This document shows, piece by piece, positions 33,797 through 59,923 of a DNA stretch of 64,000 nucleotides. The notes under the pieces are model-generated. The model searched no databases. It had not been told where the DNA came from and worked only from the letters and a program-made list of their open reading frames with translations. The position numbers and the translations under genes are program-made. Source of the stretch: an uncultured delta proteobacterium (GTDB taxonomy: Bacteria; Myxococcota_A; Polyangia; Polyangiales; Polyangiaceae); assembly GCA_963696385.1 (NCBI GenBank), contig CAVOKF010000003.1:128001-192000 (forward strand), read 5' to 3'. Positions within the stretch are counted from its first letter, which is position 1; every line of letters starts with the position of its first letter.

Positions 33797-33842
33797 CAGT
33801 CGGGCGATCGCCGGCGTCGTGACTCGGACAGCCGAGGCAGGC

Positions 33843-34020
33843 TGGTCCCCTGGAAAAAGGGGACTTCTTTGAGAAGAGCGAGTCCAGGGGACTCGCGAAG
33901 TCGCGGGAGCGCCTTCGGGGGTTTGGGCGGCGCCCAAGGAAAAAGTCAGTCCCCCGGAGGACGCCGAAGGCGTCGGCGAAGCACAGAAGTTCCGCCAGGA
34001 ACTTCTCTTCCGGGGGACTA
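33843..34020 (+). repeat. Structured intergenic element, copy A (MITE/REP-like)
   Basis: Imperfect terminal IR TGGTCCCCTGGAA / TTCCGGGGGACTA; GGGA-loop hairpin 33896-33917; GGGGGTTTGGGCGGCGCCCAAGGA core; internal hairpins GACGCC-GAA-GGCGTC and AGAAGTTCC-GCCA-GGAACTTCT. Confidence 0.8.
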
Positions 34021-35226
34021 AAACGTAGCTTCCAGGCCGGCGGTCACGATGTAGGCGCGCGCATCCGAAATGGGCGTTCCGCCGAGTGTGTATTGCTCGT
34101 ACGTGAAACCCGTCACGCTACCGGATGCTTCGAGCTTCAGCGTCTCGATCAGACCGAGGAGCCGTCTGCCTTCGGGTGCAATCGTCGAGACGATCCGTGC
34201 TCCTCCGAGCCAACTCCAAAACGGCGAGAGCTCGCGATCTCCCGTCCAGTATTGTCCACGCGGACCCAGAGGCGGAGCGCCTCCCGTATAGTCGTCGCTC
34301 CAGAACACCGCCCCGGTCTGATCGTACAGTCGTCCGCGCGCCATGAGTCGAAGCGACTCGCCCAGCGACCTTTCGAACTCGACCTCGAGAGTTCCGCTCC
34401 TGATCGCCCACGTGTCGGAGTATCCGCGAACCGAAACGCGCAGGGCGCTCCGCAGGGCACGAAGATACCAGGCGATGCGAGCCGTGGCCGCTTGACGAGC
34501 TCTCTCGGCCGGAACGTGCTCTTGGGCCTTGACTTCACCGAGAACGACGCTCCGATACGGATCGCTTTGAAAGCCGTTGACGAGCTGCGCCGTGTACGTG
34601 AGCTGCGTCTCCAACTGCGGAGTCCAGGACTGCGCCCAGCTCGCTTCGAACGTGTCTATTCCGATAGGCTCGGTGGTCCTCGTCGGATTGTTCGTAAAGC
34701 AACCCGTCGACGTGTCGAGCGCCACCCACAGTGTGGGATCCGACTCCCCCTGAACCCGGTCGCAAACGCTGTCGAAGTTGCGTGCATACGACAGCGAAAA
34801 CTGAGTGTTGTGCTGGAACGCATCATCGCGGGCGTTCACGTGAAAAGAGTGCGACCGATAATCGTGCTCCTCCGAGTAGCCGTAACCTGCGGTCATGGCC
34901 GTGGCCGCCCCCTTTAGAGTGAACTCTCCGCGCGCGAGGTTCCGGAAATCGTGCACGCTCGCGGTGCTCACGACGTCTGCGGGATGATTCGCGTGATAGG
35001 CGGGTCCGAACTTCGTCGCCACGCTCGCCCCCGAGACGACGTCGGCTTCCCATCCGCCGCGAACGTCAATCCACGACGAGGGAGAGGCTTGTGCGTCAAC
35101 CGTAGGTGAATACACGAACATGTGCGTTCGCGTCGGCGCTTCATAATAGATGGAGTGCGAAGTGTCGATCTCGGCCACTTGAGCTTTCGCTTGCCCCGCC
35201 AGAGCGAAAGCTGCGGATACCGCCAT
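34018..35226 (-). CDS. DUF3570 family outer-membrane beta-barrel protein
   Basis: Signal peptide, DVVSGAS/DVVSTAS, SEEHDYRS, GFQSDPYR, YSDTWAI, DRELS; terminal Phe. Confidence 0.85.
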   Translation of the reverse strand: MAVSAAFALAGQAKAQVAEIDTSHSIYYEAPTRTHMFVYSPTVDAQASPSSWIDVRGGWEADVVSGASVATKFGPAYHANHPADVVSTASVHDFRNLARGEFTLKGAATAMTAGYGYSEEHDYRSHSFHVNARDDAFQHNTQFSLSYARNFDSVCDRVQGESDPTLWVALDTSTGCFTNNPTRTTEPIGIDTFEASWAQSWTPQLETQLTYTAQLVNGFQSDPYRSVVLGEVKAQEHVPAERARQAATARIAWYLRALRSALRVSVRGYSDTWAIRSGTLEVEFERSLGESLRLMARGRLYDQTGAVFWSDDYTGGAPPLGPRGQYWTGDRELSPFWSWLGGARIVSTIAPEGRRLLGLIETLKLEASGSVTGFTYEQYTLGGTPISDARAYIVTAGLEATF

Positions 35227-35285
35227 GGTCGCAACGAAAGGTGCCGGATTCACGCCCGCTCCACCGCACGCAGGCGCGCTCGGGT

Positions 35286-35476
35286 TAGTAGTCCACCCCG
35301 CCACTCGCGCGAACCAAGAAGTGCGACGGTTCTTGGGGGGTGGGACACTCGCAAAGCGCGGGAGCGGTTTGGGAGGTACGGGACGGAGCCCTGGAAAGAC
35401 AAGGCTCGTGGTCTATTTTCGCTGCGCAGCAGCGTGCCCGCGGATGGATCCGGGGGGCTTACGAAACGGACCCCTA
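35286..35476 (+). repeat. Structured intergenic element, copy B
   Basis: Ends TAGTAGTCC... / ...CTTACGAAACGGACCCCTA; hairpin CAAAGCGC-GGGA-GCGGTTTG; GGAGGTACGGGACGGAGCCCTGGAAA core. Confidence 0.8.
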
Positions 35477-35692
35477 GTTGCACCCGCATCCTCCGCCCGA
35501 AACGCCCGTTCCCCCCATCGATCCTTCTCGGTTGTCCAGGGCATGCCGGAGCGCTGCGTCGTGCTTCGCCTCGGCGTCGAACTGCATCGTCGGATCGGCC
35601 AACATCGCTCGCTGTTCCGGCGCAACCGTCGCGCAGCCGACGACCACGATCGCGACGCAGAACGTGAGGATCAGAAGGAAAAACCGGGGCAT
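35474..35692 (-). CDS. DUF4266 family lipoprotein
   Basis: Lipobox VVGC, LADPTMQF, REG, C-terminal GGGCGCN. Confidence 0.9.
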   Translation of the reverse strand: MPRFFLLILTFCVAIVVVGCATVAPEQRAMLADPTMQFDAEAKHDAALRHALDNREGSMGGTGVSGGGCGCN

Positions 35693-35701
35693 CGCGACTC
35701 T

Positions 35702-36508
35702 TCAGAAGTAGACGCCCAAACCGCCGGAATAGGTCTGTCCGTTTTTGTAGGAGTCGGCCGAGAATACGGACAGATCGGTCGCTTCGAGCCGCACCAGGAT
35801 ACGATTGCGCAGCGCGAAAAGAAGCCCGCCTCCCGCACGCGCGACATACAGGTCCTCGCGGCGCAAAACGAATGAGTCCGCATTCGGCAGCACGCTCATC
35901 CCTCCCGCGAAGATGCCCAGGAACGGACACACGGGCCACGAAGGGGCCAGATAGATGGCCAGACCGCCGCCGTAGAGGAGCTCGGATCCGTCATTCGTCA
36001 AGCCGTCGCCGACAAATCCTTCCAAGCTGACCGTCTCGTGCAGTACGAGTGAAACTCTCGCCTCGACGTACCCGAAGCGCTGCACGGCCCCACCGACGAC
36101 GGGGATGCTCAGCAAGCCACCGAGCATCGCCACGCCTCCATGCGACCCTCGGAGCGGGGGCGGGGCGAACACCCCCGGTCGCGAGGGGCCCCCCTCATCG
36201 GCCGGGCTGACCCCAAAGGGCTGCACCTCATCGCCAAGCACAAACGCTACCCGCCCGTCCGACAGAATGACGCGAAGCCAAAAGCCCGCCCCCGTGCGCC
36301 CGTCGAGCGCGAACGTCTCTCCGCGATGCGCCTGGTAAATCACGCGGTAGCTGATTCCAGGCCCCGTCCGGAGCTCGGCGGCGTCGACAATCACGCGCGC
36401 GAACGCGTTGACTTCTGGATCGTCGGAGTGAGGGCCCGACGCCGCGACCGGAGCGGCCATGCAGACCCACCCGACGACAGGCCCGAGCACGTGAGCGGCC
36501 CCCTTCAT
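35702..36508 (-). CDS. SH3b domain plus OM beta-barrel-like protein
   Basis: LRTGPGISYRVI..GETF..WLRV; amphipathic strands ending GLGVYF. Confidence 0.75.
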   Translation of the reverse strand: MKGAAHVLGPVVGWVCMAAPVAASGPHSDDPEVNAFARVIVDAAELRTGPGISYRVIYQAHRGETFALDGRTGAGFWLRVILSDGRVAFVLGDEVQPFGVSPADEGGPSRPGVFAPPPLRGSHGGVAMLGGLLSIPVVGGAVQRFGYVEARVSLVLHETVSLEGFVGDGLTNDGSELLYGGGLAIYLAPSWPVCPFLGIFAGGMSVLPNADSFVLRREDLYVARAGGGLLFALRNRILVRLEATDLSVFSADSYKNGQTYSGGLGVYF

Positions 36509-36975
36509 TGGGCCCAAGTGCTCAGAAGCGTGACGACCGTCGGGTCTTGAGGGTTGATTACGGTCACGTGACCGTTTCCGCTCGGCCGAACGAGGAGGGG
36601 CGCGACCGTGTAGTCGCGGCTCATCTCGGAGGACACAGCCACATAATTGCTTTGGGGTGGGCTGCCGGTCCCGATCTGCGTCAGGTCGACAGGATGATCC
36701 CCGCCGTCGCAATCAACGGCTGCATGGTCGATGAGGCCCATGCCGCTGACGGCAGCGGGATTGAAGTGACAGCTGTTCGGCGGATACTTCGAATCGCCGG
36801 GCCCACAATTGTTCGCGAAAATGTACTGCGGCTCGACGTGACAGTAAAAGTAGTCGGCATCGAATGTCACGTCGGCGACGACGAAGTTGGTCCCCGGATC
36901 GACCGTCGTGCACCCGACCAGAAGCGCGGACCACGCGCACGGGCCGGCGCGCCAAATCGTCGCCCCAAAGGCCAT
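36505..36975 (-). CDS. Cys-rich hypothetical lipoprotein
   Basis: Lipobox LVGC; FYCHVEP..C-x11-CH; 4-bp overlap with the next gene. Confidence 0.7.
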   Translation of the reverse strand: MAFGATIWRAGPCAWSALLVGCTTVDPGTNFVVADVTFDADYFYCHVEPQYIFANNCGPGDSKYPPNSCHFNPAAVSGMGLIDHAAVDCDGGDHPVDLTQIGTGSPPQSNYVAVSSEMSRDYTVAPLLVRPSGNGHVTVINPQDPTVVTLLSTWAQ

Positions 36976-37287
36976 TTTCAGACGATAGACCGGTGAGCTC
37001 AACGGCTGCAACGATTCCGCGCGATCTCACCAAGCATCCACACGAACCGTTCGCGGCTTGGAACGGGTCGCCGAAAGAGTGACCTTGTCCTCTGCTCGCC
37101 TGAATGGACGGGGTGCGCCTAGGTACCCCTCGCGACAAAGCCCTTTCGCCACCGGTCGGTTTCGCTTGCCCCACCGGCGGCTCATCAGTAGAAGTTTGGA
37201 TTCCCGCAGTTGGATGTCGTAACGTAACCCACATGTAAGGCGCTAACGCCCGCAACCCCGTCGACGTCCTCGCGGAGATCCTCACGC

Positions 37288-37479
37288 ATGAAGCTGACGC
37301 CCTGGTATCTCATTGCCATTACCCCTATCGCCGTCGCTGGGTGCTCCGGCGCCTTCCTCGGGCATTGCGCGGTGTTGGCCGTTACCGTTTGCATCTTCGT
37401 CGGTACGCTGTCTCTCGGCCGCCATTCGGCATCGACCCCTCTGGCTGGCGAGCCGGGAGACTTGCGCGAGACGCGCTGA
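37288..37479 (+). CDS. Small membrane/lipoprotein (63 aa)
   Basis: GGAG upstream; lipobox VAGC followed by a hydrophobic helix. Confidence 0.55.
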   Translation: MKLTPWYLIAITPIAVAGCSGAFLGHCAVLAVTVCIFVGTLSLGRHSASTPLAGEPGDLRETR

Positions 37480-37598
37480 ACCAAGGGTCCGTCAGGGGGG
37501 CGCAGCGCCCCTGACGCGCCTGCCCCATGCCTCGTCCTTGCGATAGGGGCACCCGGCGAGTTTGAGCTAAGGTCCAACGCCCCCCATTCGGGGCCTCC

Positions 37599-38708
37599 AT
37601 GAACGACGCTGATCGCGAGCCGGGAGAGCGGCTGAAACCGCTCGATGAGTTCACGCTCGCCGATCTGGAGGCGATCCGACTCATCCTGCGCGGCGACTCG
37701 GTCATCGATTGGCGCCGTCTGGACCTCACGACCGAAGAACACGTGCGGGAATTTCTGCATGCTCAGGAGCTGCATCCGGACGAGCCCGCTGACCGGGCGC
37801 GCATGGATCACGTCAAGAGCGAAGCGATCGGATACTTGCGCCGCCAGTTCGATTACCCGATCCCCAGGCCGGTCGAGCAAGCGACGGTGTCCGAGCTCCT
37901 ACTTCTCGCGGCCGGCCGTGGCCACCGTGCGATGTGCGCATGCACGATTCTGAAATGCATGCACATCATTCACCATCTCGACGGCCGCGAGCTGCTGTTC
38001 GTTCTGCCGATGTCGGATCACGACGTGTTCCACATCGTCGAGGAGAAGGTCTACCGAGTCATCGGTGCGATGCTCGCCGGAGGCTTTCCGATCATCGAAT
38101 TCGTCGGAGGACGCAAGAACAAAGACTCGCTGATGACGAAGCTCCTTTCGAAGCAGGACACCATCGCCGCACAAGTCTTCGACAAGCTGCGGTTTCGTGT
38201 CGTTACGCGAACGCGTGACGATATTTTTCCAGTCCTTCAATACCTGACCAAGAAGCTGTTCCCGTTCAATTACGTCGTCCCCGGCCAGAGCATCAACTCG
38301 ATCTTCGGCTTCAAGTCCTACGTGGACAAGACGACTCTGAAACCGCTTCTCGATCAGATGCAAGTGTGCGGATGGAACGACAACGAATTCACGCCCAGCG
38401 ACAACCAGTTCTCCGCGGAATCCTACAGGATTATTCATTTCGTCGTGGATATGCCGGTGCGATTGCCGAGGCGAATCCTCGACCGCGCACCCTCCAGTGC
38501 GGGAACTCTCGGCAACGTGATTTTCGTTATCTGCGAGTTCCAGATCGTCGACCGCGACAGCGAAGCCCACAACGAGATTGGTGATGCGTCGCACGCCAAG
38601 TACAAAGAACGGCAAAAGAAGGCCGTCATGCGTCGACTTCAGCTCGGCGGGGCCGGCGACGCACCTGCAGGCGCGGAGCCGTCGCAAGACGTGCGCAGAA
38701 AGAGGTAA
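37599..38708 (+). CDS. TIGR04552-like protein with RelA/SpoT-type nucleotidyltransferase motifs
   Basis: LRGDSVIDW; RKNKDSLMTKL, DKLRFRVV, YRIIHF, CEFQIV, SHAKYK. Confidence 0.8.
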   Translation: MNDADREPGERLKPLDEFTLADLEAIRLILRGDSVIDWRRLDLTTEEHVREFLHAQELHPDEPADRARMDHVKSEAIGYLRRQFDYPIPRPVEQATVSELLLLAAGRGHRAMCACTILKCMHIIHHLDGRELLFVLPMSDHDVFHIVEEKVYRVIGAMLAGGFPIIEFVGGRKNKDSLMTKLLSKQDTIAAQVFDKLRFRVVTRTRDDIFPVLQYLTKKLFPFNYVVPGQSINSIFGFKSYVDKTTLKPLLDQMQVCGWNDNEFTPSDNQFSAESYRIIHFVVDMPVRLPRRILDRAPSSAGTLGNVIFVICEFQIVDRDSEAHNEIGDASHAKYKERQKKAVMRRLQLGGAGDAPAGAEPSQDVRRKR

Positions 38709-38729
38709 CGGAGTAGAAAGGCCGCTGCC

Positions 38730-39239
38730 ATGCGTCTGTACAGCGGAAAAATTCCTGCGGTCTCGGCCGAAATCGTTCGCGCGCTGCTCACTTCGAACGA
38801 CATCGAAGCGGAGAGCCCCAAACAGGTGGAAGCGGACGTGGCGGCCGTCCTCACGCAATACCTTTCCGACGAACGCGAGGTGAACGACCGCGCCAAGGAC
38901 GTCCTCGAACGAACGGGCAAGCCAAATACCGAATTCTCGAGGGTGCGGCAGCTCGTTGCGGAAGAGAAGGGCATCAAGGTGGGCGACGATGCGTTGGATT
39001 ATTTGCTCGACCAGGTCGTCGAGATGTTGATGCACTCAAACCATGTCGACGAGGTGTATGTCGAAGACGTCGAGCTTCGGCGAAAGATGGCGCCCATCTT
39101 CAAGAAGCACATGGCCGTCGATGCAACGGTCGACGCCGAAGTACGAGCGCAGATCCGGAACGTTCGCGAGGGAACGCGCGAATGGGAGATTGAGTTCGCG
39201 AAGGTCCTCGAGCAGGTGAAGCGCAAGAAGGGTCTCTGA
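38730..39239 (+). CDS. DUF507 family protein
   Basis: MRLYSGKIP..; D.EVRAQIRN..EG..EW.I.F..VKRKKGL. Confidence 0.8.
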   Translation: MRLYSGKIPAVSAEIVRALLTSNDIEAESPKQVEADVAAVLTQYLSDEREVNDRAKDVLERTGKPNTEFSRVRQLVAEEKGIKVGDDALDYLLDQVVEMLMHSNHVDEVYVEDVELRRKMAPIFKKHMAVDATVDAEVRAQIRNVREGTREWEIEFAKVLEQVKRKKGL

Positions 39240-39352
39240 GGCGCGCCGTCGTGGCGGCCGGCGTTGGACGGCCCTCACGGCGGGTTTCGGGCCTGGCGGT
39301 GTTCGCGCTCTGTCTGGAGGCCGATGCGAAATCGTCGTAGCGTGGGAAATCC

Positions 39353-40225
39353 ATGCGCAGCATGACCGGATTCGGGCTGGGGCAGACGCCGCTGGGCGCA
39401 GGCACGCTCGGGGTCGAGATCCGCGGAGTCAACCACCGATTTCTCGACGTCCGGGTGCGAGTGCCGCGGGAGTCGACGGACATGACGGGATTTGTAGAGC
39501 AACTGGCCCGCGAGCGACTGACTCGAGGTCGTTACGAGGTCGTGCTTCGGATCGACGGCGTCGCGCTCGGCGCTCCGGCACTCGACCGCGACCGGGCACG
39601 AGCCGCCTTCCGTGCCCTCTCCGAGCTGCGCGACGAGTTGGCGCCGGGCAGTGAGGTCCCGCTCTCGCTGCTCGCCGTCATTCCAGACTTATTTGCGCCG
39701 CCGGTCGACCCCGAGACGGATCGAATTCGGGACGCTACCCGCTTTGCCTTCGACGCGGCTGTCCGCGCACTCGACGCCATGCGCGAGTGCGAGGGGACGG
39801 CCTTGCGAGACGATCTCACGCGACGGCTCGAACGTGTGAAGCGCATCGCGCGCGAGATCCATCGGCGCTCGCCCGACGTCCTCGAGGCGCACCGAAGGCG
39901 CCTGTCCGATCGTGCGGAGCGGCTTCGAGCCGGTGGAGAGATCGACGTGGACGCCGGACGCCTCGAGCAGGAAATCGCCGTATTCGCCGAGCGTTGCGAC
40001 ATCACCGAGGAGCTCACGCGTCTCGAGAGTCACTGCGGTCAATTCGCCGCGCTTCTCGGCGCCGAAGAAGCCGTAGGACGCCGCCTCGACTTTCTCCTGC
40101 AAGAGATGGCACGCGAGGCCAACACGGTTGGCGCAAAGAGCCCGGACGCGCCCGTCGCACACGCCGTGGTCGAGTTGAAGGCGGAAATCGAACGGATGCG
40201 CGAGCAAGTGCAAAACGTCGAATGA
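39353..40225 (+). CDS. yicC: YicC/YloC family endoribonuclease
   Basis: MRSMTGFG, VNHRFLD, DITEELTRL..H, GRRLDFL.QEM.REANT, REQVQNVE. Confidence 0.95.
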   Translation: MRSMTGFGLGQTPLGAGTLGVEIRGVNHRFLDVRVRVPRESTDMTGFVEQLARERLTRGRYEVVLRIDGVALGAPALDRDRARAAFRALSELRDELAPGSEVPLSLLAVIPDLFAPPVDPETDRIRDATRFAFDAAVRALDAMRECEGTALRDDLTRRLERVKRIAREIHRRSPDVLEAHRRRLSDRAERLRAGGEIDVDAGRLEQEIAVFAERCDITEELTRLESHCGQFAALLGAEEAVGRRLDFLLQEMAREANTVGAKSPDAPVAHAVVELKAEIERMREQVQNVE

Positions 40226-40854
40226 ATTCCAAGGACGACTTTCTCCTCCTGATCCTTTCGTCGCCCAGCGGTGCGGGCAAGACGACGCTCACACGACGGC
40301 TTCTCGGGTACTGCCCGGAATTGCTCTTCAGCGTAAGTCACACGACGCGACCCGCTCGTGCCAACGAGGTGAATGGACGCGACTACCATTTCGTCGATCG
40401 GGCAACGTTTCTGGACTTGGCCGCGAAGGGGGCGTTTCTCGAGTGGGCCGAGGTGCATGGCAATCTTTACGGTACCTCGACCGCGGAAATCGACCGCGCG
40501 CGAGCCGTCCACGGCTGCAACGGAATGCTCTTCGATATCGACTACCAAGGGGCCCGGCAGATCAAATCGAAAGTGACTGACGTCGTGGCAGCCTTCATCT
40601 TGCCGCCGTCGATGATGGAGCTCGAACGACGCCTCCGCGGGCGGGCCAGCGAAACGGAAGAGACTCTCAAACGTCGATTCGAAGTTGCCAAGCGCGAGAT
40701 TGAGCACTACGGTCTGTTCGATTATCTGGTGGTCAACGACGATCTGGACCGGGCCGTCGACGAGCTGCGCTCGATCGTCGTCGCCGAGCGAGCGCTTCGA
40801 CCGCGGCGCGCGCATCTAGCCGAATCCCTTCTGCGAACGGGCAGGCTGGTGTAA
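40222..40854 (+). CDS. gmk: Guanylate kinase
   Basis: SPSGAGKTT, SHTTR, EWAEVHGNLYGT, DIDYQGA; ATG overlaps the yicC stop. Confidence 0.96.
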   Translation: MNSKDDFLLLILSSPSGAGKTTLTRRLLGYCPELLFSVSHTTRPARANEVNGRDYHFVDRATFLDLAAKGAFLEWAEVHGNLYGTSTAEIDRARAVHGCNGMLFDIDYQGARQIKSKVTDVVAAFILPPSMMELERRLRGRASETEETLKRRFEVAKREIEHYGLFDYLVVNDDLDRAVDELRSIVVAERALRPRRAHLAESLLRTGRLV

Positions 40855-40857
40855 GCG

Positions 40858-41748
40858 ATGGACGTCGGGAACCGGAGCCGAATCATGTCCAGACGAAACA
40901 CGTTGGCCGTCATCGGCGGGAGCGGATTGTATCGAATCGAGGGCCTCGAAGAGGTCGAGGAGGTCGACGTCGACACGCCGTTCGGTCCCCCGAGCGATGT
41001 CGTTGTTCGGGGTCGGCTCGGCGACACCACGTTTCTGTTTTTGCCCCGGCATGGGCGGGGCCACAGCATCGCGCCACACGTCATCGACTATCGCGCCAAC
41101 GTGTGCGCCTTAAAGAAGCTCGGGGCCACTCATCTATTGAGCGTGAGCGCCGTCGGCTCGATGCGCGAGGACATTGCTCCCGGTGACTTCGTGGTCGTCG
41201 ACCAGTTCATCGACCTCACGAAAAGGCGCGTCGCGACATTCTTCGAAGACGGCGTCGTCGCGCACGTCGGGTTCGCCGATCCGGTCTGCGCGGACTTGGC
41301 CGGCGCGCTCGCGCGCGCCGCGGAAGGGGTGGGTGTCCGAGTCCATCGCGGCGGAACGTATATCTGCATCGATGGACCTCAGTTCTCGACGAGAGCCGAA
41401 AGCCGCCTCTACCGGTCGTGGGGAGTGTCGGTGATCGGAATGACGGCCATGCCGGAGGCCAAACTCGCGCGCGAAGCGGAACTCCCCTACGCGCTTTTGG
41501 CGCTCGCTACGGACTACGACTGTTGGCACGAGAGCGAGGCTGACGTGACCGTCGATTCGGTCCTTGCCGTGATGGATCGCAACGTGTCTTCCGCGCGGCG
41601 CGCCGTCGCCGAACTTTCGCTCCGGCTTCCGGACCCGGAAAAGAGCTCGGCGTCGGGGGCGCTGCGCCTGGGGTTGATGACCGATCGCCAGAGCATTTCC
41701 GCCGCCGCGCACGCACGGCTCGACTGGCTCGTAGCCAAGTACTTGTAA
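40858..41748 (+). CDS. mtnP: S-methyl-5'-thioadenosine phosphorylase
   Basis: IGGSGLY, PRHGRGH, GPQFSTRAES, GMT, TDYDCW; alternative start at 40885. Confidence 0.93.
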   Translation: MDVGNRSRIMSRRNTLAVIGGSGLYRIEGLEEVEEVDVDTPFGPPSDVVVRGRLGDTTFLFLPRHGRGHSIAPHVIDYRANVCALKKLGATHLLSVSAVGSMREDIAPGDFVVVDQFIDLTKRRVATFFEDGVVAHVGFADPVCADLAGALARAAEGVGVRVHRGGTYICIDGPQFSTRAESRLYRSWGVSVIGMTAMPEAKLAREAELPYALLALATDYDCWHESEADVTVDSVLAVMDRNVSSARRAVAELSLRLPDPEKSSASGALRLGLMTDRQSISAAAHARLDWLVAKYL

Positions 41749-41765
41749 ACCTCAGGGAGATTGTC

Positions 41766-42707: not shown

Positions 42708-43876
42708 TGGAATCCGACGGCGACGCGCGCGCCTACGAGGCGCTCTCGGAGCTCCCACGGCTCGCCGACCTCGCCGCGATCGCGCAGGAGGTGATGAGCC
42801 GCGCGGCCGAGGCCCGACGGTCCGAGGAGCAGCCGGAGCCGACCGAGAAGCTCGCCGCGCAACGGTGTCTCACGCGCGAGGAGGCGGCGACGCCATTCGG
42901 CAACGCGCTGGACGTTCTCGCCCGAGGGCCCACCAACAGCACCGAGCGCACTCTCGCACGCGCCCTTGCAGGACAGGCCCTCGGACTCTGGCCCACGGAA
43001 GCGTCCGACGAGGAGGACCGGCGAGCGAGCCAACTCCTCTGGCTGGCGACACACACTTGGTTCGATGCGACGGGATTCGTCGACCGGGCGCTCGGGGACC
43101 GCGCGGACAGGGTTTGGGACGCGTTCGCCGAGCGCGTGCGTCGCCATGACGACGGCACGCTTGCGTCGCTCGGTCGCCCCGAGACGCTGGTGGCTGCGAT
43201 CGCCCTGGCGTCTTCCCCGTCGGCCAACGCATCCCGCCTTTGCTCACGGCTCGCTACCGAAGCCCACGATCCGATGATCGCGACCATTTTGCGGCGAGCC
43301 GGTGATCGAGGCGGAGGCCATTCTCTGGTCGGCGAGTGGGCCCACTCACCTCGGGGCTGGTTCGCGACCGCATCGCTCGGCTTGACGGGCCTGTCGCTCG
43401 TCATGAACGTCGCCCGCGCCATCTTGCGCGTGGCATTCGCGTACCGCAAGCCGGCGGAGGTCACGCTTTCCGAGGATGGTGGCGTGCGCGTGCGGTGGCG
43501 AATCGAGCTTTTGGGTCGCACGCTGCGGGATCGAGACGTCGTTGTTCCGCGCTCCGCACTGGCCCGCGCAACACGAGATGTGCGCTACCCCCGGTTGGCC
43601 CTCTATGGAGCACTCTTCGCGCTTGCGCTGGGCAGCTACGTCGGCGTCACGGCCTTCATCGACGGCTTCCGCGCGGAGTCTCCGTCGGTCGTTGCCGCAG
43701 GGCTCGCGATCGTCGCGGCCGGTTTCGGGCTGGATTTGGCGTTGACGAGCATCGCATCGGGCGCACGTGGCCGATGCACGGTTGTCTTCGTTCCCCGCCG
43801 GGGCACCCCCCTGTGTGTTGGGTCCGTGGACATCGCGGCGGCCGACGCCGTATTGACACGGCTGTCTCAGGGCTAG
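42707..43876 (+). CDS. Hypothetical membrane protein
   Basis: TAATG coupling to the kinase gene; helical N-terminal domain, C-terminal TM helices. Confidence 0.7.
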   Translation: MESDGDARAYEALSELPRLADLAAIAQEVMSRAAEARRSEEQPEPTEKLAAQRCLTREEAATPFGNALDVLARGPTNSTERTLARALAGQALGLWPTEASDEEDRRASQLLWLATHTWFDATGFVDRALGDRADRVWDAFAERVRRHDDGTLASLGRPETLVAAIALASSPSANASRLCSRLATEAHDPMIATILRRAGDRGGGHSLVGEWAHSPRGWFATASLGLTGLSLVMNVARAILRVAFAYRKPAEVTLSEDGGVRVRWRIELLGRTLRDRDVVVPRSALARATRDVRYPRLALYGALFALALGSYVGVTAFIDGFRAESPSVVAAGLAIVAAGFGLDLALTSIASGARGRCTVVFVPRRGTPLCVGSVDIAAADAVLTRLSQG

Positions 43877-44050
43877 TGGTCCATTCCACACGTCGCGCGA
43901 ATCCATCCGTGCCGTGGTTCTTGCGGGACGGCCACGATCAAAACCTCAGGAGCGGCGTTGGGGTACGGGTCGGGGCCTCGGAAAAAACAAGGCTAGCGGT
44001 CCTTTTGCACTGCAGCTCGCTCGCGGATGCGTCCGCGGGACCTTGCCGTT
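43873..44050 (+). repeat. Structured intergenic element, copy C (degenerate, closest to copy B)
   Basis: Starts CTAGTGGTCC; shares TCGCGCGAA, GGTTCTTG, GGTACGGG, ACAAGGCT and CGCGGATG..TCCG with copy B. Confidence 0.75.
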
Positions 44051-47043: not shown

Positions 47044-47044
47044 G

Positions 47045-47566: not shown

Positions 47567-47594
47567 TGCCCTAGATAGCTCTCGGAGGGATACC

Positions 47595-49161: not shown

Positions 49162-49180
49162 TGGCAATCTCTCCTCTCGG

Positions 49181-50874: not shown

Positions 50875-50940
50875 GCAAACTTATTTCTAGCACGGTGACC
50901 CCCGCGGGCGGATCGGAGGCTGATTGCGTTATAGAAGCTC

Positions 50941-51936: not shown

Positions 51937-52013
51937 ACCCCCCCGAGCGGCACGGTCGAGCTGGGGGTTACCTAGACCCGTTGAAGGCGATACGCTAGCG
52001 TCGTGCTTCGTAG

Positions 52014-53291
52014 GTGACTGCCGCCATCGAACTCGTCGCGACCGCTGCGGCGACCGCCATTGGGTCGCTGTTCGCCGCGAGCGACGCCGCGCTGAGCGAG
52101 ATTCCCGAGGGACGAATGCAGGCGTTGAGCGCCGATCCCGGCGCCGCGGGAGCGGCTTTTCGGCGATTCACCGATGACCCCCAGCGCTTGCTTTCGCGTT
52201 GGTTGGTGGGGCGCGTCGTGGCCTTGAGCGTGGCCAGCGTACTGCTGAGCGACGCGGCCAGGCTGATGGGGCTCGATCGCTTTGCCCTTCCCGTGGCTGT
52301 CCTCGGCGCGGTCCTGACGTACGGCACATTCACGGAGATATTCGGTACCCTGGCGCGGCGACGTCCCGAACGCGTCGGAGCACTCGGACTCGCCTTCCTG
52401 CGCCCGCTCGAATGGGTGGTCGCTCCTCTCGCGGATCCCCTGGCCGTCCTCGGCCGGGCGGTGCGACGGCGCGTTCCCAAGTCGCGTCCGACCGACGCGC
52501 GCATTGCCGAGAGCGAAGTCGAGTGGGTCGTCAGCGAGGGGGAGAAGGCTGGAGCCATCGCAAACGAGCCGGCGGAGATGATCCGCAAGGTCCTCGACTT
52601 CAAGGACCTCACCGCCGAGGAAGTGATGGTCCCCAGGCGTCTGATTCGTGGCGTGGAAGTGGGTACGGCACTCGTGGACGTCGTGGCGCTCGTCGCCTCG
52701 GAGAAACATTCGCGTTACCCGGTCTTTCGAGAAAACCTCGATAACGTCGTGGCGCTTCTCTACGCCAAGGATTTGTTCGCCGTCATGCGCGACGGGCGCC
52801 TCGGCACCGCGAAGCTTTCAGAGATTGCGCGCACCCCCGTGCCTTTCGTGAGCCAGAACGAGCCGGCCGCGAAGGTCCTTCAGGATATGCGATCGCGTCG
52901 GCTGCACGTCGCCATCGTGAGCGACGAATTCGGAGGTACATCGGGCCTGGTCACGCTCGAGGACATTCTCCAGGAAATCGTCGGTGACATCCGCGCCGAG
53001 CATGACGTCGACGCTCTGATCCATGCGATCGGAGACGGGCGCGTCGTCGCGGACGCATCCGTCCATCTCGATGAGCTTTCTCGCGCGCTCGGCAAGCCGC
53101 TCCCCAACGACGGAGAGTTCGAGTCGCTCGGAGGCCTCATCGTGAGCCGCGCGGGCCACGTACCGCAGGTCGGTGCAACGCTCCAAGTGGACGGGCTCAA
53201 ACTCATCGTCCGCGAAGCCGACGCGACCCGTGTCGTGAAGGTGGAGATTGTACCTGACCGGGCGCTGCAGCCTGCGCCCACGATATCGTGA
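52014..53291 (+). CDS. CNNM/HlyC-CorC family transporter (CBS pair plus CorC)
   Basis: TM region, EVMVPR, HSRYPV, DEFGGTSGLVTLEDI, ESLGGL. Confidence 0.92.
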   Translation: MTAAIELVATAAATAIGSLFAASDAALSEIPEGRMQALSADPGAAGAAFRRFTDDPQRLLSRWLVGRVVALSVASVLLSDAARLMGLDRFALPVAVLGAVLTYGTFTEIFGTLARRRPERVGALGLAFLRPLEWVVAPLADPLAVLGRAVRRRVPKSRPTDARIAESEVEWVVSEGEKAGAIANEPAEMIRKVLDFKDLTAEEVMVPRRLIRGVEVGTALVDVVALVASEKHSRYPVFRENLDNVVALLYAKDLFAVMRDGRLGTAKLSEIARTPVPFVSQNEPAAKVLQDMRSRRLHVAIVSDEFGGTSGLVTLEDILQEIVGDIRAEHDVDALIHAIGDGRVVADASVHLDELSRALGKPLPNDGEFESLGGLIVSRAGHVPQVGATLQVDGLKLIVREADATRVVKVEIVPDRALQPAPTIS

Positions 53292-53689
53292 AGGCGCCGC
53301 GCCCCGACGCGATTCGGCTCTACACGTGCGTTCGGGACGTCAAGGCGCCGAGCCCACCTTTTGGGCTCGCCCACTGGAGTGACGACGCGACCGCGCTAGC
53401 GGTATGGCTCGAAACCGGCAGAGCCGAGGACCTCGCGGCGATTGCTGCCCAGATCCCGCAGGCGGACACGCTGGCCGCGAACGTGTCCGTCGCGATCCTG
53501 GGGACCGCCGTCCGTCGACGCGGAGTCTGGGGTCGGGTCTTCGGCCTTGGCACGGTCATCGTTTCCACGGACGTCCGTTGCACGGCCCTGCTGGTGCGCG
53601 GCTACGTCGACATCGGTGCGGAGCCGACGATGCACCGCGGTGCATGCGTCGTCTGGGGACGGTCGCCCGAAGCCGATCGCGCTGGATAG
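53288..53689 (+). CDS. Hypothetical protein
   Basis: 4-bp overlap with the upstream gene; CTALLVRGY..VWG. Confidence 0.6.
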   Translation: MKAPRPDAIRLYTCVRDVKAPSPPFGLAHWSDDATALAVWLETGRAEDLAAIAAQIPQADTLAANVSVAILGTAVRRRGVWGRVFGLGTVIVSTDVRCTALLVRGYVDIGAEPTMHRGACVVWGRSPEADRAG

Positions 53690-53741
53690 CCATGCGCGAG
53701 AGCGCATCCAAAAGCGGGATCCGCCTCGCCGCGACCGGCGG

Positions 53742-54908
53742 TCAGTTCACCTTGTTCAATTGATCGGCCAGCTTGGCCGCCGTGTCGGCCAGGCCCGGCT
53801 TCGGCTCCGAGATGGCTTCGCCTTCGGCTCGTTGGCCCTGAATATCGTCGACGACCGAGTTCATCGAGCTGATGAGCTGTGCGATTTGACCCCGCGTTGC
53901 GCTCGGACAGACCTTCTCGAAGGTGTTGGGCACGATGGTGATCGCCGCGCCTTCCTTGGGGACTTTGTCCGTCGAGAGACGCGGAAGCTTGACATTGCCT
54001 CCGCCACGCGGATTCGCAAACGTCAGTTCGCTGGGGACGCCGTTCTTGTCGTCCGGTGCGATGGGAGTTGCGAGCGGAGCGAGGAATGCCCCAGAGGAGG
54101 GCGTGTCCTTGTCGACGACCACGACGTACGAGACGGGCAGCTGGCCGGGCGGGCGGCTCAACTCCTCGGTGATCGGCTTCTGCAACTTGCTCAGCAGCGA
54201 GACGATGAGATCCTTTTTGTCGTTGAGGGTCTGCACGCGCGTAATGAACTCAAACAGAAGCCGCGTCGTATCCGCAGGCACGCCGCTGAAGCGCCGGCCA
54301 AAGAGCTTGTCGCCGCCGAAATCGACGTTCAATCCCGAAAGCTGCTGACCGAGATCCGCCGGGAACTTGCGATCGGCGATCAACGTCTTACCGCCGTCTT
54401 GAAGTTTTTGCCTGAGCTCTTCAAGCGAGGTCTTGGCCTTGACGACGTCCGCCGCCAGGTCGTGCGCATCATGCACGCCCTGCATCCGTGCGGCCCCCTG
54501 GGAAGTTGCGCTGCCGCCGACGTACCCGAGAACGCCGAACACCCCCGCGACGACTATCCCCGCCATGAGTCCGCGCTTGAAGCCTCCGCTGCGAGCCTGC
54601 CGAACGACTCCTTCATCGAGCTCGATGAGCTGCGGCTGCATCGGCGAGGCGGCCACGGCTTGGGCGAACGGTTGGGCCACGGCCGCCAACTGGCCGGCGA
54701 CGTCAAGGCCCGGAGGACGACCCGAGACCGATCGCTGCGGCGCTCCCGAAGGCATCGATCCGGGCGGAAGCGAGGGACCTCTCAGCCCCGAGGGGCCCAC
54801 GGCGGGAGGCATACTCCCACTTGGAGGCGGCGGCGTCGGCCCCGGGGGACCACCCATCTTTTGCAGACGGGACTTCAAATCAATCTTCGGCTTTCTGTCT
54901 TCCGCCAT
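53742..54908 (-). CDS. Hypothetical bitopic membrane protein (Pro-rich N-terminus, TM, coiled coil)
   Basis: Coherent 388-aa ORF with one TM helix. Confidence 0.8.
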   Translation of the reverse strand: MAEDRKPKIDLKSRLQKMGGPPGPTPPPPSGSMPPAVGPSGLRGPSLPPGSMPSGAPQRSVSGRPPGLDVAGQLAAVAQPFAQAVAASPMQPQLIELDEGVVRQARSGGFKRGLMAGIVVAGVFGVLGYVGGSATSQGAARMQGVHDAHDLAADVVKAKTSLEELRQKLQDGGKTLIADRKFPADLGQQLSGLNVDFGGDKLFGRRFSGVPADTTRLLFEFITRVQTLNDKKDLIVSLLSKLQKPITEELSRPPGQLPVSYVVVVDKDTPSSGAFLAPLATPIAPDDKNGVPSELTFANPRGGGNVKLPRLSTDKVPKEGAAITIVPNTFEKVCPSATRGQIAQLISSMNSVVDDIQGQRAEGEAISEPKPGLADTAAKLADQLNKVN

Positions 54909-55304
54909 CGTGAGTTCGCGACCTTACGTGCCCCCATACTCGAATGTCAACGTGACCGGCGTCCGGCGCCGGGGGCTTTTTTTCGTCCGCCGCTCGTCTG
55001 CCGCCCGCGCCAGAAACGTCCGTTGCGCACCGCTCCGCAACGCCCTCTGCCGTACGTCGGTCGTGTCGCACAATCGCGCCCATTTGACCATGTTTTCGAG
55101 AACCGCCAGCAAGCTTCCGAACAGCCAGGCCCCACGGCGGCGACAGGGTCGCGTCGTTTGCTCCCACGATTGTTGCGGCTGCTCCATCCACTCCACCTCG
55201 GCGGAGCGAGCTCCGAGCGCAGCGAAGCGCTCAGGGGTGGGGCGAGTTTCTGACAGGCGGCGTAAGGTCGAGTTTATGACTAGGCTCGGACCTGACCGAA
55301 AGCG

Positions 55305-55907
55305 ATGAGCCTGCGCGTCTTGGTGATCGACAACTACGACTCGTTCACGTTCAACCTGGTGCAATACCTCGGAGAGCTCGGTGCGAGCGTCGAGGTACAC
55401 AAGAATGATGCCATCGGCGTCACGGGAGTTCGTGCAGCAGACCCGGATGCCATTGTCATCTCCCCGGGGCCATGCACTCCGAATGAGGCCGGTGTTTCGC
55501 TTGATTTAATCCGACAACTGGCCGGTTCCTCGCCGATTTTGGGCGTCTGCCTTGGCCATCAGGCCATCGGACAGGCTTACGGAGGGCGGGTCGTCCGCGC
55601 GGAGCGACTCATGCACGGAAAGACGTCTCCCATTTTGCACGATGGCCGTGACCTCTTCGAGGGCATCGCATCGCCGTTTGACGCTACGCGCTATCATTCG
55701 CTCCTGGTCGAGCGCGAATCCCTACCCGCATGCTTGGAGGTGAGCGCGTGGACCGAAGATGGCGAGATCATGGGCCTCAGGCACCGCGAGCACCCCGTGC
55801 AGGGGGTGCAATTCCATCCTGAAAGCATCCTGACCCTTCCAGGCAAGCAACTGGTGGCCAACTGGCTTCAGCGCATCGCCGGCTTCCGTGGTTCGATTTG
55901 CGATTGA
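55305..55907 (+). CDS. trpG: Anthranilate/aminodeoxychorismate synthase component II
   Basis: [30 protein letters not shown]. Confidence 0.93.
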
Positions 55908-55918
55908 GCTGGGGCCCG

Positions 55919-56953
55919 ATGAGGGGGAGTTTCCCGGAGGCGCTCGCTCGACTCCTGTCGTCGGCACCGATTGCGAAGGGAGAGGTTCGGAGCGCGTTCG
56001 ACGAGATCTTCGCCGGCCGGTGGACGGCGGTGCAAGTCGGAGCGTTTGCGGTGGCGCTGCGCATGAAGGGCGAGCCCGCCGAAGCCATCGTGGCCGGAGC
56101 TGAGGCTCTGCGGGCGACGATGACGGTTGTGGATCACGACTTTCCAATCGTCGTCGACACTTGCGGCACCGGAGGGGATGGGGCGCAAACGCTCAACCTT
56201 TCGAGCGGCGCCGCGCTGGTCGTCGCGGCATGCGAACTGCCGGTCGCCAAGCACGGCAATCGGTCCGCCTCGAGCCGTTGCGGGAGCGCCGATGTGTTCG
56301 AGGCGATGGGCATCCCCATCGACTTATCCCCGGCCCTCCAGGCCGATGTCTTTCGCGAAGCGGGCATTGCGTTCCTCTTTGCCCAAGCGCACCACCCGGC
56401 CCTTCGACACGCCGCGCAAGCGCGCAGGGAGCTCGGTACCCGAACGATTTTCAACGCACTGGGGCCGCTCGCGAACCCTGCTCGTCCCACCCATCAACTC
56501 GTCGGCGTTTACGAAGATTCGCTCAGGCCGATCGCCGCGCGCGCCCTCGGTATGTTGGGTGTACGGCATGCTTGGGTCGTACGGGGTGAGGACGGCCTCG
56601 ACGAGGTAAGCCCGTGCGCGCCCACGCGCGTGAGCGAATGGAAGGTTGCCGAAGGCGATGTTCGCGAACGCATCGTGACTCCGGAAGACTTCGGGTTGTC
56701 GCGACTCGCCCGAGCCGCCGTCCTGGGAGGCGAGGTCGAGGAGAACGCGCGCGCGCTCGACGCCATCATCAACGGCCAGCCCCATCCCGCCCGGGACGCG
56801 GTCCTGCTCAACGCCGCCGCGGCGCTTGCCATCGCGACGGGCGACGAGTTGCGAGGGTGCACCGAGCGCGCCCGACGCGCCGTCGACAGCGGCGCTGCGC
56901 GAGAGACCCTCGAACGATGGAGGCGCGTGGCACATCGCGCGCGCATGGCTTGA
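55919..56953 (+). CDS. trpD: Anthranilate phosphoribosyltransferase
   Basis: DTCGTGGDG, KHGNRS, RTIFN..GPL.NP, GLDE. Confidence 0.96.
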   Translation: MRGSFPEALARLLSSAPIAKGEVRSAFDEIFAGRWTAVQVGAFAVALRMKGEPAEAIVAGAEALRATMTVVDHDFPIVVDTCGTGGDGAQTLNLSSGAALVVAACELPVAKHGNRSASSRCGSADVFEAMGIPIDLSPALQADVFREAGIAFLFAQAHHPALRHAAQARRELGTRTIFNALGPLANPARPTHQLVGVYEDSLRPIAARALGMLGVRHAWVVRGEDGLDEVSPCAPTRVSEWKVAEGDVRERIVTPEDFGLSRLARAAVLGGEVEENARALDAIINGQPHPARDAVLLNAAAALAIATGDELRGCTERARRAVDSGAARETLERWRRVAHRARMA

Positions 56954-57759
56954 GTCGGCTGGCCGCCATCGTCGAATCCAAGGTCCGCGAAGTTCAGGCG
57001 CTTCGTGGAACCCCCCGCACTCGGTCGCGCCGGGATCCGCTCGGGATTGGGCCCGCGCTGCACCGCGGTCCGGGCGGAGAACTGCGCCTCATCGCCGAAG
57101 TCAAGCTGCGAAGTCCGAGCGCGGGGCTGCTTTCGCGTGCGCTCGATCCCGCTGCGCGCGCGGCGGCGTACGCTGAAGCGGGCGCGTCGATGGTGAGCGT
57201 GCTCTGCGACGGGCCGTTCTTCGACGGCTCATGGCAGCACCTCTCGGCGGTGCGCGAGCGTCTCGACGCGGCGGGCTACAGGACGCCCTTGCTCGCCAAG
57301 GAGTTCGTCATCGACCCGCGACAGATTCAGGAGGCACGAGACCGGGGTGCCGACGCCGTACTCCTCATCGCCCGCATCGTGGACGCGGCGGCGCTGATGG
57401 CACTTGCTCGCGTCGCGCGAGACGAGGGCATCGAGCCTTTCATCGAAGTCGTCGACGCCCGGGAGATCGAAGCGGCCCTTTGCGCGGACGCGTGCATCGT
57501 GGGGGTCAACGCGCGCGACCTCGACACCCTTGCCATGGACGCCGCTCGCGCGGAGAGTGTCCTCGCCTCGATCCCCCAAGGCGTCGTTGCGGTGCACCTG
57601 TCCGGCTTGCGTGAGGCGAGTGACGTCGCCGCCATCGCTCGTGGTCGCGCAGACGCGGCTCTCGTCGGCGAAGCGTTGATGCGTGACGACGACCCCAGGC
57701 CCCGCCTGCGGGCGCTCGTCGCCGCGGGGCGACCGCCAAATGTTTCGCCGCGCGAGTGA
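56950..57759 (+). CDS. trpC: Indole-3-glycerol phosphate synthase
   Basis: IAEVK..SPS.G, SVL, LAKEF, GADAVLLI, GVNARDL, LVGEALM. Confidence 0.93.
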   Translation: MSRLAAIVESKVREVQALRGTPRTRSRRDPLGIGPALHRGPGGELRLIAEVKLRSPSAGLLSRALDPAARAAAYAEAGASMVSVLCDGPFFDGSWQHLSAVRERLDAAGYRTPLLAKEFVIDPRQIQEARDRGADAVLLIARIVDAAALMALARVARDEGIEPFIEVVDAREIEAALCADACIVGVNARDLDTLAMDAARAESVLASIPQGVVAVHLSGLREASDVAAIARGRADAALVGEALMRDDDPRPRLRALVAAGRPPNVSPRE

Positions 57760-58695
57760 TTGTCGCCTACGATCGACCGTAGCTTGGAACTGCACGGTTG
57801 GATTGACGCGTACCTCAACCACCTGCGCGTCGAGCGACTTCTGGCGCGCAACACGCTCGATGCTTACGCAAACGATTTGAATGCGCTGGCTCGTCACGTC
57901 GGGGCCGAAGTGGACCCGGCTCGGGTCGGGGCCGAAGTGATCGGATCGCTGCTGCTCGAAAATGTGGAGCGGCACGGATTGAGTGCACGATCGAGCGCGC
58001 GCCAGCTATCGGCCATTCGCGGACTGTTCCGATTTCTCGTCCGCGAGCGCGCCATCCCCGAGGACCCCACTCGGCTCCTCGATCGGCCGCGCGTAACTCG
58101 GAACCTTCCGCGGATTCTCTCGTTCGATCAGGTCGATCGCTTGCTCGCGGCGCCCGACTGCACCACCGACAGAGGCTGCCTGCACGCCGCCATGCTGCAT
58201 CTGATGTACGCATCCGGCCTACGGGTCAGTGAGCTATGCGCCTTGTCCGTCGCCGATCTGGATCGACAGCGCGGCGTCGTCCGGGCTCGCGGAAAGGGTG
58301 GCAAACGGCGCCTCGTTCCGGTGGGCGAGGTCGCGTTGGCGCACGTCGGCCACTACCTCGACGTCGTTCGTCCCAAGGCACGTGTCGAGATGCCATCGGT
58401 TCTGTTTCTGTCGCCCCGTGGGGGCCCATTCACTCGCGAAGGCTTCTGGAAGCTCGTGCGCCGGTACGCCGTAGGGGCTGGCATATTGCCCCTGCCCTCT
58501 CCGCACAAGCTGCGGCACTCGTTTGCAACGCATTTGCTGCGCGGCGGTGCCGATCTACGCGCCGTGCAAGCCATGTTGGGACATGCCGACTTGGGTACGA
58601 CCGAAATCTATACACATATTAGCCCCGAGCACGTGCGCGAAGCGCATGCCAAAGCCCATCCGCGCGGCCTGGGGCGCCAGGGGTCCGTTTCGTAA
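57760..58695 (+). CDS. xerD: Tyrosine recombinase XerD
   Basis: YASGLRVSEL, GKGGKRRLVP, SPHKLRHSFATHLL, LGH, TTEIYTH. Confidence 0.92.
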   Translation: MSPTIDRSLELHGWIDAYLNHLRVERLLARNTLDAYANDLNALARHVGAEVDPARVGAEVIGSLLLENVERHGLSARSSARQLSAIRGLFRFLVRERAIPEDPTRLLDRPRVTRNLPRILSFDQVDRLLAAPDCTTDRGCLHAAMLHLMYASGLRVSELCALSVADLDRQRGVVRARGKGGKRRLVPVGEVALAHVGHYLDVVRPKARVEMPSVLFLSPRGGPFTREGFWKLVRRYAVGAGILPLPSPHKLRHSFATHLLRGGADLRAVQAMLGHADLGTTEIYTHISPEHVREAHAKAHPRGLGRQGSVS

Positions 58696-58835
58696 GGGCA
58701 AGGGCGAATGGGCGGGAGCGAATTCGGGGGTCGGGCGGAGCCCAAAGGACAGATCTCGTCTCGCGCACCGCCGAGTCGCGAAGCGAAGCCATCGCGCCGC
58801 GATGGCTGGAGGGTGCATCGACGGCGGTGCACGGG
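58679..58835 (+). repeat. Structured intergenic element, copy D (5' domain shortened)
   Basis: AGGGGTCCGTTTCGTAAG end; CGAATGGGC-GGGA-GCGAATTCG hairpin; GGGGGTCGGGCGGAGCCCAAAGGA core; 3' stem 58760-58835. Confidence 0.8.
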
Positions 58836-58864
58836 TGCGCGCCATGCTAGTTTCGCCCTCGGCC

Positions 58865-59704
58865 ATGCGCGCTCCGTTTGAGCGAATCGATCCCGTGGCG
58901 CCCGAGACACCCGTCGTCGTCGAGGTACCGCACGCCGGGCTCGAAATGCCCGCCCCGTTTCTGGAGCCGCTAGCCGCTCCCGCGCGCTCGATCGCGCGAG
59001 ACGCTGATTTGTATGTGGACGGGCTTTACGAAGACGCTCCGGCGGAAGGCGCAACCCTACTCGTGGCCCGAGCGTCACGTTATGTCATCGACTTGAATCG
59101 TGCCGAGGGCGATGTGGACGCCGAGGTCGTCGAGGGCGGACGGGCCGACAGCCGGATGCAGCACGGGCTCGTGTGGCGCACGACGAGCGACGGCGAACGG
59201 GCGCTGGTTCGACGCCTGACGTCTACCGAGCTCACGGAGCGGCTCGATCTGGTGTGGCGCCCTTATCATCGCGAGCTGAGCGCCATCGTCGAGCGCAAAC
59301 GAATCCGCTTCGGGTTCGCCATATTGCTCGCCGCTCACTCGATGCCAAGCGTCGAGCGGGGATCGCGAGGCGCACCGGGCCGCGAACCCGGCTCGAGCGG
59401 CCGCAGAGCCGACGTCGTACCCGGGTCACGCGGCCGCAAGAGTGCGGGGGCACCGTTCATCGCGGCGATCGAGGACCACGCCATTGCCCACGGATGGAGC
59501 GTGCGGCATGACGACCCCTACGCGGGTGGCTTCACGACGCAGTACTACGGCCGGCCGGCTCAACATGTCCATGCCGTTCAGCTCGAGCTCTCTCGCCGCC
59601 TGTATCTGGACGAGGTGTCCCTTCGGCCGCTCGCGAGCTTCGGCGCCGTCCGGGACTGGTGCCGCAGCCTCGTTGCACGGCTCGGTCGAATGGATGCGGC
59701 CTAA
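58865..59704 (+). CDS. N-formylglutamate amidohydrolase
   Basis: VPHAG, DADLYVD, SRYVIDLNR, PYH, HSMPS, PYAGG, QLE. Confidence 0.92.
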   Translation: MRAPFERIDPVAPETPVVVEVPHAGLEMPAPFLEPLAAPARSIARDADLYVDGLYEDAPAEGATLLVARASRYVIDLNRAEGDVDAEVVEGGRADSRMQHGLVWRTTSDGERALVRRLTSTELTERLDLVWRPYHRELSAIVERKRIRFGFAILLAAHSMPSVERGSRGAPGREPGSSGRRADVVPGSRGRKSAGAPFIAAIEDHAIAHGWSVRHDDPYAGGFTTQYYGRPAQHVHAVQLELSRRLYLDEVSLRPLASFGAVRDWCRSLVARLGRMDAA

Positions 59705-59876
59705 GTACAACCGCCCCGGAACAAAGGGATCGGCCGTGCGGCGTACTTCAATCGCCGGGAGGCGATTGGGGGGTTGGGGGGCGAAGCCCAAGGAAATCAT
59801 CTTGATAGAGCGCCAGCCTGCAAAGCTCGCATATCCGAGCGAAGCTCGGGTATCGTTCAAGGGGGCGTTCTGCTTA
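59702..59876 (+). repeat. Structured intergenic element, copy E
   Basis: Imperfect terminal IR TAAGTACAACCGCCCC / GGGGCGTTCTGCTTA; perfect CAATCGCC-GGGA-GGCGATTG hairpin; GGGGGTTGGGGGGCGAAGCCCAAGGA core. Confidence 0.8.
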
Positions 59877-59923
59877 AAAGTACACCGCGTGGGTGTGCGA
59901 ATCGCGGTAAACGGATGGTTCCC

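Follow-up and report, generated by a model that had tools for sequence, protein, structure and literature searches.

Dispersed repeats with a shared folding core in a Polyangiaceae genome are probably IS630-type miniature transposons

Five short repeats, denoted A to E, are scattered in a stretch of 64,000 nucleotides (the window) from an uncultured delta proteobacterium of the Polyangiaceae (assembly GCA_963696385.1, contig CAVOKF010000003.1, positions 128,001 to 192,000). [quoted passage not shown] The best overall explanation, to which we give a probability of about 0.6, is that these MITEs are moved in trans by IS630-family DDE transposases, and keep the fold of their core for mobility. 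That the core acts in mobility at the DNA level, as extruded or single-stranded DNA, is suggested by analogy and has slightly less than an even chance. An earlier sequence-only reading of the window, made without database searches, had described five cores folding alike; all five were found where they had been placed, and are 54-76% identical in pairwise comparisons over 50 nt.

The family was collected by iterated profile searches of the genome (G000; 6.94 Mb, 96% complete), which yielded 107 merged copies or fragments, and no match in the reversed genome used as control. Members are sorted into four subfamilies (74 of E type, 25 of B type including window copies B and C, 6 of D type and 2 of A type), which feature terminal inverted repeats but have ends unrelated to one another. 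Forty-nine copies measure at least 140 nt, and only 1 of the 107 copies or fragments resides in the interior of a called gene. Complete elements, 160-195 nt in size, begin and end with the target word; between these lie the left arm, the core and the right arm, with a CTAG on either side of the core. In the core, which spans about 55 nt, a GGGA-looped stem of 8-9 bp is followed by a G run, then by a GC-rich stem capped by a GNA triloop, and last by a purine-rich linker; two further hairpins are found in the right arm. The core originally described is thus real, but it is only part of a larger element, in which a left arm and well-delimited ends are recognized as well. On each side, the outer ~26 bp are a transposon end. 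The inner ~10 nt of every arm are complementary to the outer terminus of the same arm, and this inner copy consists of ~10 nt plus CTAG, without the remainder of the transposon end.

The window elements are 159-193 nt long, and all lie on the + strand. Copy A (33842..34021, core from 33896) is a complete A-type element, in which both target tetranucleotides are present, each mutated from CTAG; its right end overlaps the stop codon of a convergent DUF3570 gene. Copy B (35285..35477, core from 35352) is a complete B-type element, with a right CTAG that runs into the stop codon of a called gene ending at 35474. Copy C (43873..44044, core from 43939) is also B-type but lacks the right terminus, removed by deletion, and its left CTAG is a called stop codon (43876). 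Copy D (58677..58835) is a mosaic, in which an inverted B-type right-end fragment of ~20 nt (58677-58696), located inside the 3' end of xerD, adjoins a D-type body with core from 58705 and a right arm carrying the IS630-a end type. Copy E (59701..59877, core from 59749) is a complete E-type element, with a CTNAG target and a duplication of the TNA type, and is directly followed by ~12 nt of a second E left end. The earlier reading is thus corrected in that B and C belong to one subfamily, C has no right end and D is composite. Arms of different subfamilies share 25-56% identity, against 47% for random DNA, and those of B and C 64% and 56%.

Evidence of mobility comes from the sister species G003, in which flanking sequences are 89-95% identical to those of G000. 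Sites A and C carry there a single CTAG and no element. Site B hosts an A-type element at the same CTAG, and is free of elements in four other genomes. Site D is occupied by an unrelated CTAG-bounded MITE, and a remnant of that MITE family is found at site E. Among four further E copies checked, three correspond to cleanly vacant sites, in which one TCAG-containing target is present, and near the fourth lies the unrelated MITE. This second MITE family, ~150 nt long, was seen at or near three of the sites occupied by elements in G000 (at those of D and E in G003, and at L407).

Empty sites show for A and B/C types insertion at CTAG with duplication of TA. E-type elements do not duplicate TA, and appear to insert at CTNAG, their target word, with a 3-nt TNA duplication. 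TNA is kept on both sides in 10 of 23 near-full E copies, and its middle base matches between sides in 8 of these 10 (5 A, 2 G, 1 C). A preference of IS630 for CTAG is reportedly the subject of a paper, by its title. No IS630 subgroup with a 3-nt duplication at CTNAG was found in a limited literature search, which did not extend to ISfinder, and the E-type elements may point to such a subgroup.

The same sites bear on the view that the repeats are a structured host RNA, or else REP-like sequences acted on by an HUH enzyme or by the neighbouring tyrosine recombinase, rather than elements moved by a DDE transposase. Strong covariation and loops of the DNA mini-hairpin type would fit this view, as would the position of copy D, which adjoins a gene for a XerD-like tyrosine recombinase (57760..58695, + strand), a degenerate core being found after xerD also in G227. 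It is largely refuted by the empty sites, and is hardly compatible with target duplications and IS630 ends; we regard it as very improbable. XerD was rejected as cognate enzyme: its gene is a chromosomal one located after trpC, is found at the same place without the element in G024 and G008, and its vicinity to copy D was judged incidental. The Y1_Tnp transposases expected for RAYT/REP systems are missing, as no PF01797 match was found in the 96% complete G000. No gene family is tied to the copies among 196 neighbours, which gave only a few, unannotated paralogue clusters, and a cognate gene in cis was thus discarded. A retron/msDNA origin, for which no search was made, is rendered unnecessary by ends and duplications. 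Rfam covariance models gave no match at gathering score, the best weak match having an E value of 0.21. A host RNA gene is unlikely, because the folding strand is not biased relative to transcription or replication and the loops are of DNA type; moreover, the element is absent at orthologous loci and has no fixed orientation to transcription. The sequence-only reading had left room for a MITE or REP family: the elements are MITEs in kind, but match no described family, and no REP-type Y1 transposase accompanies them.

The trans mobilisation that we favour calls for IS630 partners. G000 features 12 DDE_3 matches, and the inverted repeats of one resident IS630 (G000:C7:1384607-1385737), which has CTAG ends, are the D-type ends. 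Nearly all of the 44 closest IS630 loci in which ends were read are CTAG-bounded on both sides. In 21 D-type lineages, the outer ends match at positions 11-27 an IS630 end profile built from 30 autonomous elements (18/21 and 20/21 for the two sides). A second resident IS630 agrees with the ends of other lineages at 17-21 of 26 positions, and the first seven bases of a third one recur in the G020 copies. The E-type end agrees with the right end of an element encoding a DDE_3 transposase in G420 at 16-20 of 26 positions; this element (L412, G420:C112) is a 5'-truncated IS630 with its right end at a CTNAG word, and plasmid relatives of its transposase are annotated as IS630. L412 is a candidate member of a subgroup of IS630 that duplicates 3 nt. 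Records holding the related IS630s are mostly titled as Polyangiaceae, Myxococcales or deltaproteobacteria.

Inner copies of the D-type ends never match the profile (0/21 and 0/21), and the arms have nearly constant lengths, 42-48 and 64-68 nt. The hypothesis that the arms are complete mini-IS630s was consequently rejected, as inner ends fail the profile in 21/21 lineages (in L099 a one-base shift would improve the match, by eye). Also rejected was the idea that the core is part of an autonomous IS630 or a guide RNA, as it is absent from 92 of 94 IS630 loci scanned with the core model (80 from the genome collection and 14 from the phylum search). The two positive loci, L125 and L126, are IS insertions into a MITE, in which an IS630 interrupts the MITE at the CTAG that separates left arm and core, the two IS630s being oppositely oriented; in L270 an IS630 is inserted at an outer CTAG. 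Similarly, in two split E copies of G000, foreign DNA sits exactly at the inner right junction. These cases indicate that the junctions of the elements are themselves insertion targets. One of the split copies (G000:C6:155914-156415) contains an insert of ~95 nt having inverted ends of its own and a tandem duplication, and the second (G000:C6:329432-331129) is interrupted by ~1.5 kb including two small genes, which by eye resemble a toxin-antitoxin pair. Separately, four tandem ~59-nt repeats built from part of an E element were noticed at G000:C7:49900-50144, and several MITEs and one IS630 are chained via common CTAGs at G000:C6:148.5-150.1 kb.

Pairing in the core is conserved beyond sequence, as had been proposed from the five copies, but this is evident across lineages rather than in single copies, which are decayed. 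Folding z-scores of A to E are -4.7, -2.4, -0.4, -1.5 and -2.9, and in the minimum-energy structures predicted for B, C and D the common fold is incomplete. Covariation is modest in a 20-copy alignment that includes the five (39 double-change cells versus 22.7+/-2.9 in shuffled alignments; 8 versus 7.5 pairs), and strong across lineages. In 68 distinct metagenome cores, positions left free by the search pattern form Watson-Crick pairs in 62-68 of the 68; all four pair types (22, 20, 14 and 8) are found at one free position, and three at each of the two pairs below the triloop stem. In an alignment of 22 lineages, chosen with the structure in mind, 97.9% of cells are paired, and double changes occur in 8 of 15 pairs.

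A plainer interpretation is that these are ordinary MITEs with a functionless middle inherited from one ancestor, in which pairing is kept without selection by template-switch or gene-conversion repair of inverted repeats. The decay of the E copies, which have a mean pairwise identity of 76%, and in which 38 double changes re-establish pairing against 36 that disrupt it, is in keeping with this interpretation, as are the narrow range of the family and the existence of coreless MITEs with IS630 ends. Still, ends and arm loops have been fully turned over, while core, junction CTAGs, spacing and loop type persist, and repair leaves unexplained the strand asymmetry of loops and wobble pairs and the fixed arm lengths. 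We hold a neutral middle to be improbable. E copies diverge from their consensus by 8-13% in stems and 14-15% in loops and linkers. Given this divergence and the absence of elements at orthologous sites of the sister species, the target of selection is most likely the lineage of elements rather than a host RNA at each locus.

Folding as a single strand favours one of the two strands. The top strand gives the more stable fold in 29 of 33 elements as DNA, and in 27 of 33 as RNA. Distinct events in arm stems are 18 for G.T versus 5 for A.C, and the figures in E copies are 97 and 60. Right-arm loops, which played no part in any search, are predicted to be of the c(GNA)g type in 43 of 92 cases, compared to 1 of 90 on the opposite strand; GNRA was found once and UUCG never. 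Such loop types point to DNA over RNA. GCGNAGC and GCGNNAGC mini-hairpins are described as very stable as DNA, the RNA counterpart measured being much less stable, and have been found in phage origins and N4 promoters (PMC13037366). Of the two substrates of selection first proposed, a folded RNA or single-stranded DNA, the second is consequently the better supported, and a host RNA at each locus the unlikely one.

The position of the elements relative to genes could nevertheless suggest selection of the MITE fold at the RNA level. Copies co-transcribed at gene 3' ends would, thanks to their arms and core, be tolerated because they serve as terminator-like or stabilising structures or as RNase sites, a role that has been put forward for Correia and ERIC. 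According to our own simple gene caller, used for genes and stop codons alike, a stop codon lies within 15 nt of an end in 29 of 49 full-length copies, and 33 of 74 E copies are located between convergent genes, versus 460 of 2986 background gaps. In addition, the GGGA loop is also a GNRA tetraloop, and, on the minus strand, copy A is overlapped by two sites resembling terminators. The bias has another explanation, however, because the insertion target is often a stop codon; copies thus gather at gene 3' ends, and then decay. Moreover, in co-oriented gene pairs the folding strand is sense or antisense with similar frequency (18/14 for E, 5/5 for B), and the right-arm loops are triloops. Selection on the transcript is therefore, in our opinion, an unlikely source of the fold, if less so than a neutral middle.

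In the proposed mechanism, elements would be mobilised in trans by IS630-family DDE transposases, and the chassis formed by core and arms would be retained as an aid to transposition of a ~170-bp element. Short c(GNA)g- and GGGA-capped hairpins could extrude from supercoiled or transiently unpaired DNA, and provide a flexible hinge or an enhancer joining two close ends, in the manner of the Stowaway internal enhancer. Ends would be swapped between transposase lineages, IS630 insertions at the CTAGs of the element supplying the raw material. By its sequence organization, one layout is common to lineages with at least seven unrelated end types. A bolder, doubtful version holds that core and self-paired arms are a transferable DNA chassis working as a folded single strand, mobilised or copied by a route beyond plain double-stranded cut-and-paste, and able to capture the ends of any incoming IS630 lineage, including the CTNAG type; a hairpin-extruded or single-stranded intermediate, or a primase-type signal, might then be involved.

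Several observations weigh against mobilisation by IS630 transposases with a core kept for mobility. Template-switch repair of quasi-palindromes can imitate compensatory change, and the lineages compared are related, so that pairing and loop counts overstate their independence. The binding part of the end is missing from the inner copies, and a simple insert-and-delete origin of the arms does not fit. No replication-strand bias is seen (34 of 78 copies in the leading-strand test), which led to rejection of a lagging-strand bias, and clustering by orientation is borderline (34 of 55 neighbours, p 0.052). An autonomous partner was not found for A and B/C ends, the best match to seven known ends being 12/26, with no wide search made for A; a B-end pattern run over 300 genomes detected no transposase, its sole result being a MITE that has B-like ends but no core. 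For E, the partner is from another family and 5'-truncated, and none was found in G000 with the G420-derived query; 301 genomes of the order gave only distant IS630s, 38-42% identical and with CTAG ends where seen. CTAG MITEs devoid of core exist in G000. Finally, IS630 elements are described as moving by double-stranded cut-and-paste with TA duplication, a mechanism in which hairpins are unneeded (PMC2170065).

The coreless MITE with B-like ends is ~180 nt long and gave 11 pattern matches in G482 (L423-L439). Coreless 100-123-nt MITEs with IS630-type ends were noticed in G000 at C6:137665-137787, C6:149999-150110 and C5:564225-564324.

The range of the family is narrow. With the first model, matches were found in 15 of 30 other genomes of the genus (including the unpublished G010), with 1-63 copies each as lower bounds, and under strict filters in 2 of 149 further genomes of the phylum, both of the same family. 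The exact core pattern was found in at least 121 metagenome stretches, 80 of which were retrieved. A total of 136 loci gave 87 parsed elements, in 52 clusters at 90%, some of them mis-parsed; the end types mentioned above were counted over metagenome and genus loci. Outside Myxococcota the core was sought with a core-only model in 57 chosen genomes, with 96 candidates per genome being scored; matches at E<=0.01 were obtained in 23 of the 57, and inspection of the 18 best loci revealed clear family members only in G819, G844 and G840. Viral contigs gave no match to the core pattern, phage records no match, and plasmids chance-level matches only.

Some related structures were encountered in these surveys. 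CTNAG-bounded two-arm MITEs found in another family (L071 and L075 in G182, L076 and L078 in G150) carry left ends resembling those of E, together with a structured middle of a different sort; a GGGA-loop stem and an A-rich linker are also present in L071 and L075. Core variants with an additional hairpin between the two core stems were found at L230, L232, L234, L236 and L238 (G076), L222 (G083) and L110 (G017); the G076 copies are bounded by TTAG/CTAA. In L382 (G227), located after xerD, at the same gene end as copy D, a degenerate core is followed by three tandem copies of the second hairpin. On contig C3 of G008, unlike in G000, listed copies seem to lie mostly on one strand at 0.8-2.3 Mb and on the other at 2.5-3.5 Mb, possibly a replichore effect.

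If the favoured interpretation is correct, some bacterial MITEs would be evolved structured parasites with a reusable middle and exchangeable ends, beyond deletion stumps of transposons, and the two-arm design of CIR would thereby be linked to IS630 ends. Should the folded-strand version hold, they would be structured parasites of an entire transposase family.

No description of the family or of the core motif was found in the literature, most subscription journals and ISfinder lying outside the scope of the search. Known IS630-derived bacterial MITEs include RUP of Streptococcus pneumoniae (IS630-Spn1), MITEEc1, and the TA-flanked Correia/NEMIS and ERIC (PMC2229807; bioRxiv 10.1101/2024.01.18.576219). 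As described in these sources, they are, like the elements reported here, shorter than 200 bp, non-coding, intergenic and dispersed, with IS630-matching terminal repeats and a TA duplication. RUP, MITEEc1, Correia and ERIC are depicted as one end-to-end rod (PMC2229807), whereas the present elements have two self-paired arms with inner CTAG junctions. Furthermore, they share a core among lineages with unrelated ends, and one subfamily duplicates TNA rather than TA. CIR of Caulobacter and Brucella, compared by its description in a review only, is similar for TA termini, two independently folding arms joined by a linker and conservation of structure across species; it is ~110 bp long, has a GANTC motif and an unknown mode of mobility according to that review, which lists no terminal inverted repeats (PMC2229807). 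Unlike those of CIR as there described, the arms of the present elements are linked with IS630 ends, and a core of two hairpins lies between them. The rice Stowaway MITE Ost35, moved by Osmar mariner transposases of the same superfamily, has a TA target as well, and its internal sequence is reported to enhance transposition and to work with swapped ends; it is eukaryotic and unrelated in sequence, and enhancement, demonstrated for Ost35, is suggested here by analogy (PMC3660474). The phage G4 origin, ssiA of RSF1010 and N4 early promoters are described as having, clustered on one strand, hairpins of the c(GNA)g or c(GNNA)g type, as seen here, but those are replication or transcription signals, and the likeness noted here is a structural one (PMC13037366). 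The elements resemble by kind an IS630 MITE such as RUP, and by shape CIR; what is particular to them is a design of two arms with partial ends on the inside, a CTNAG subfamily built on the same core, and a DNA-type loop signature.

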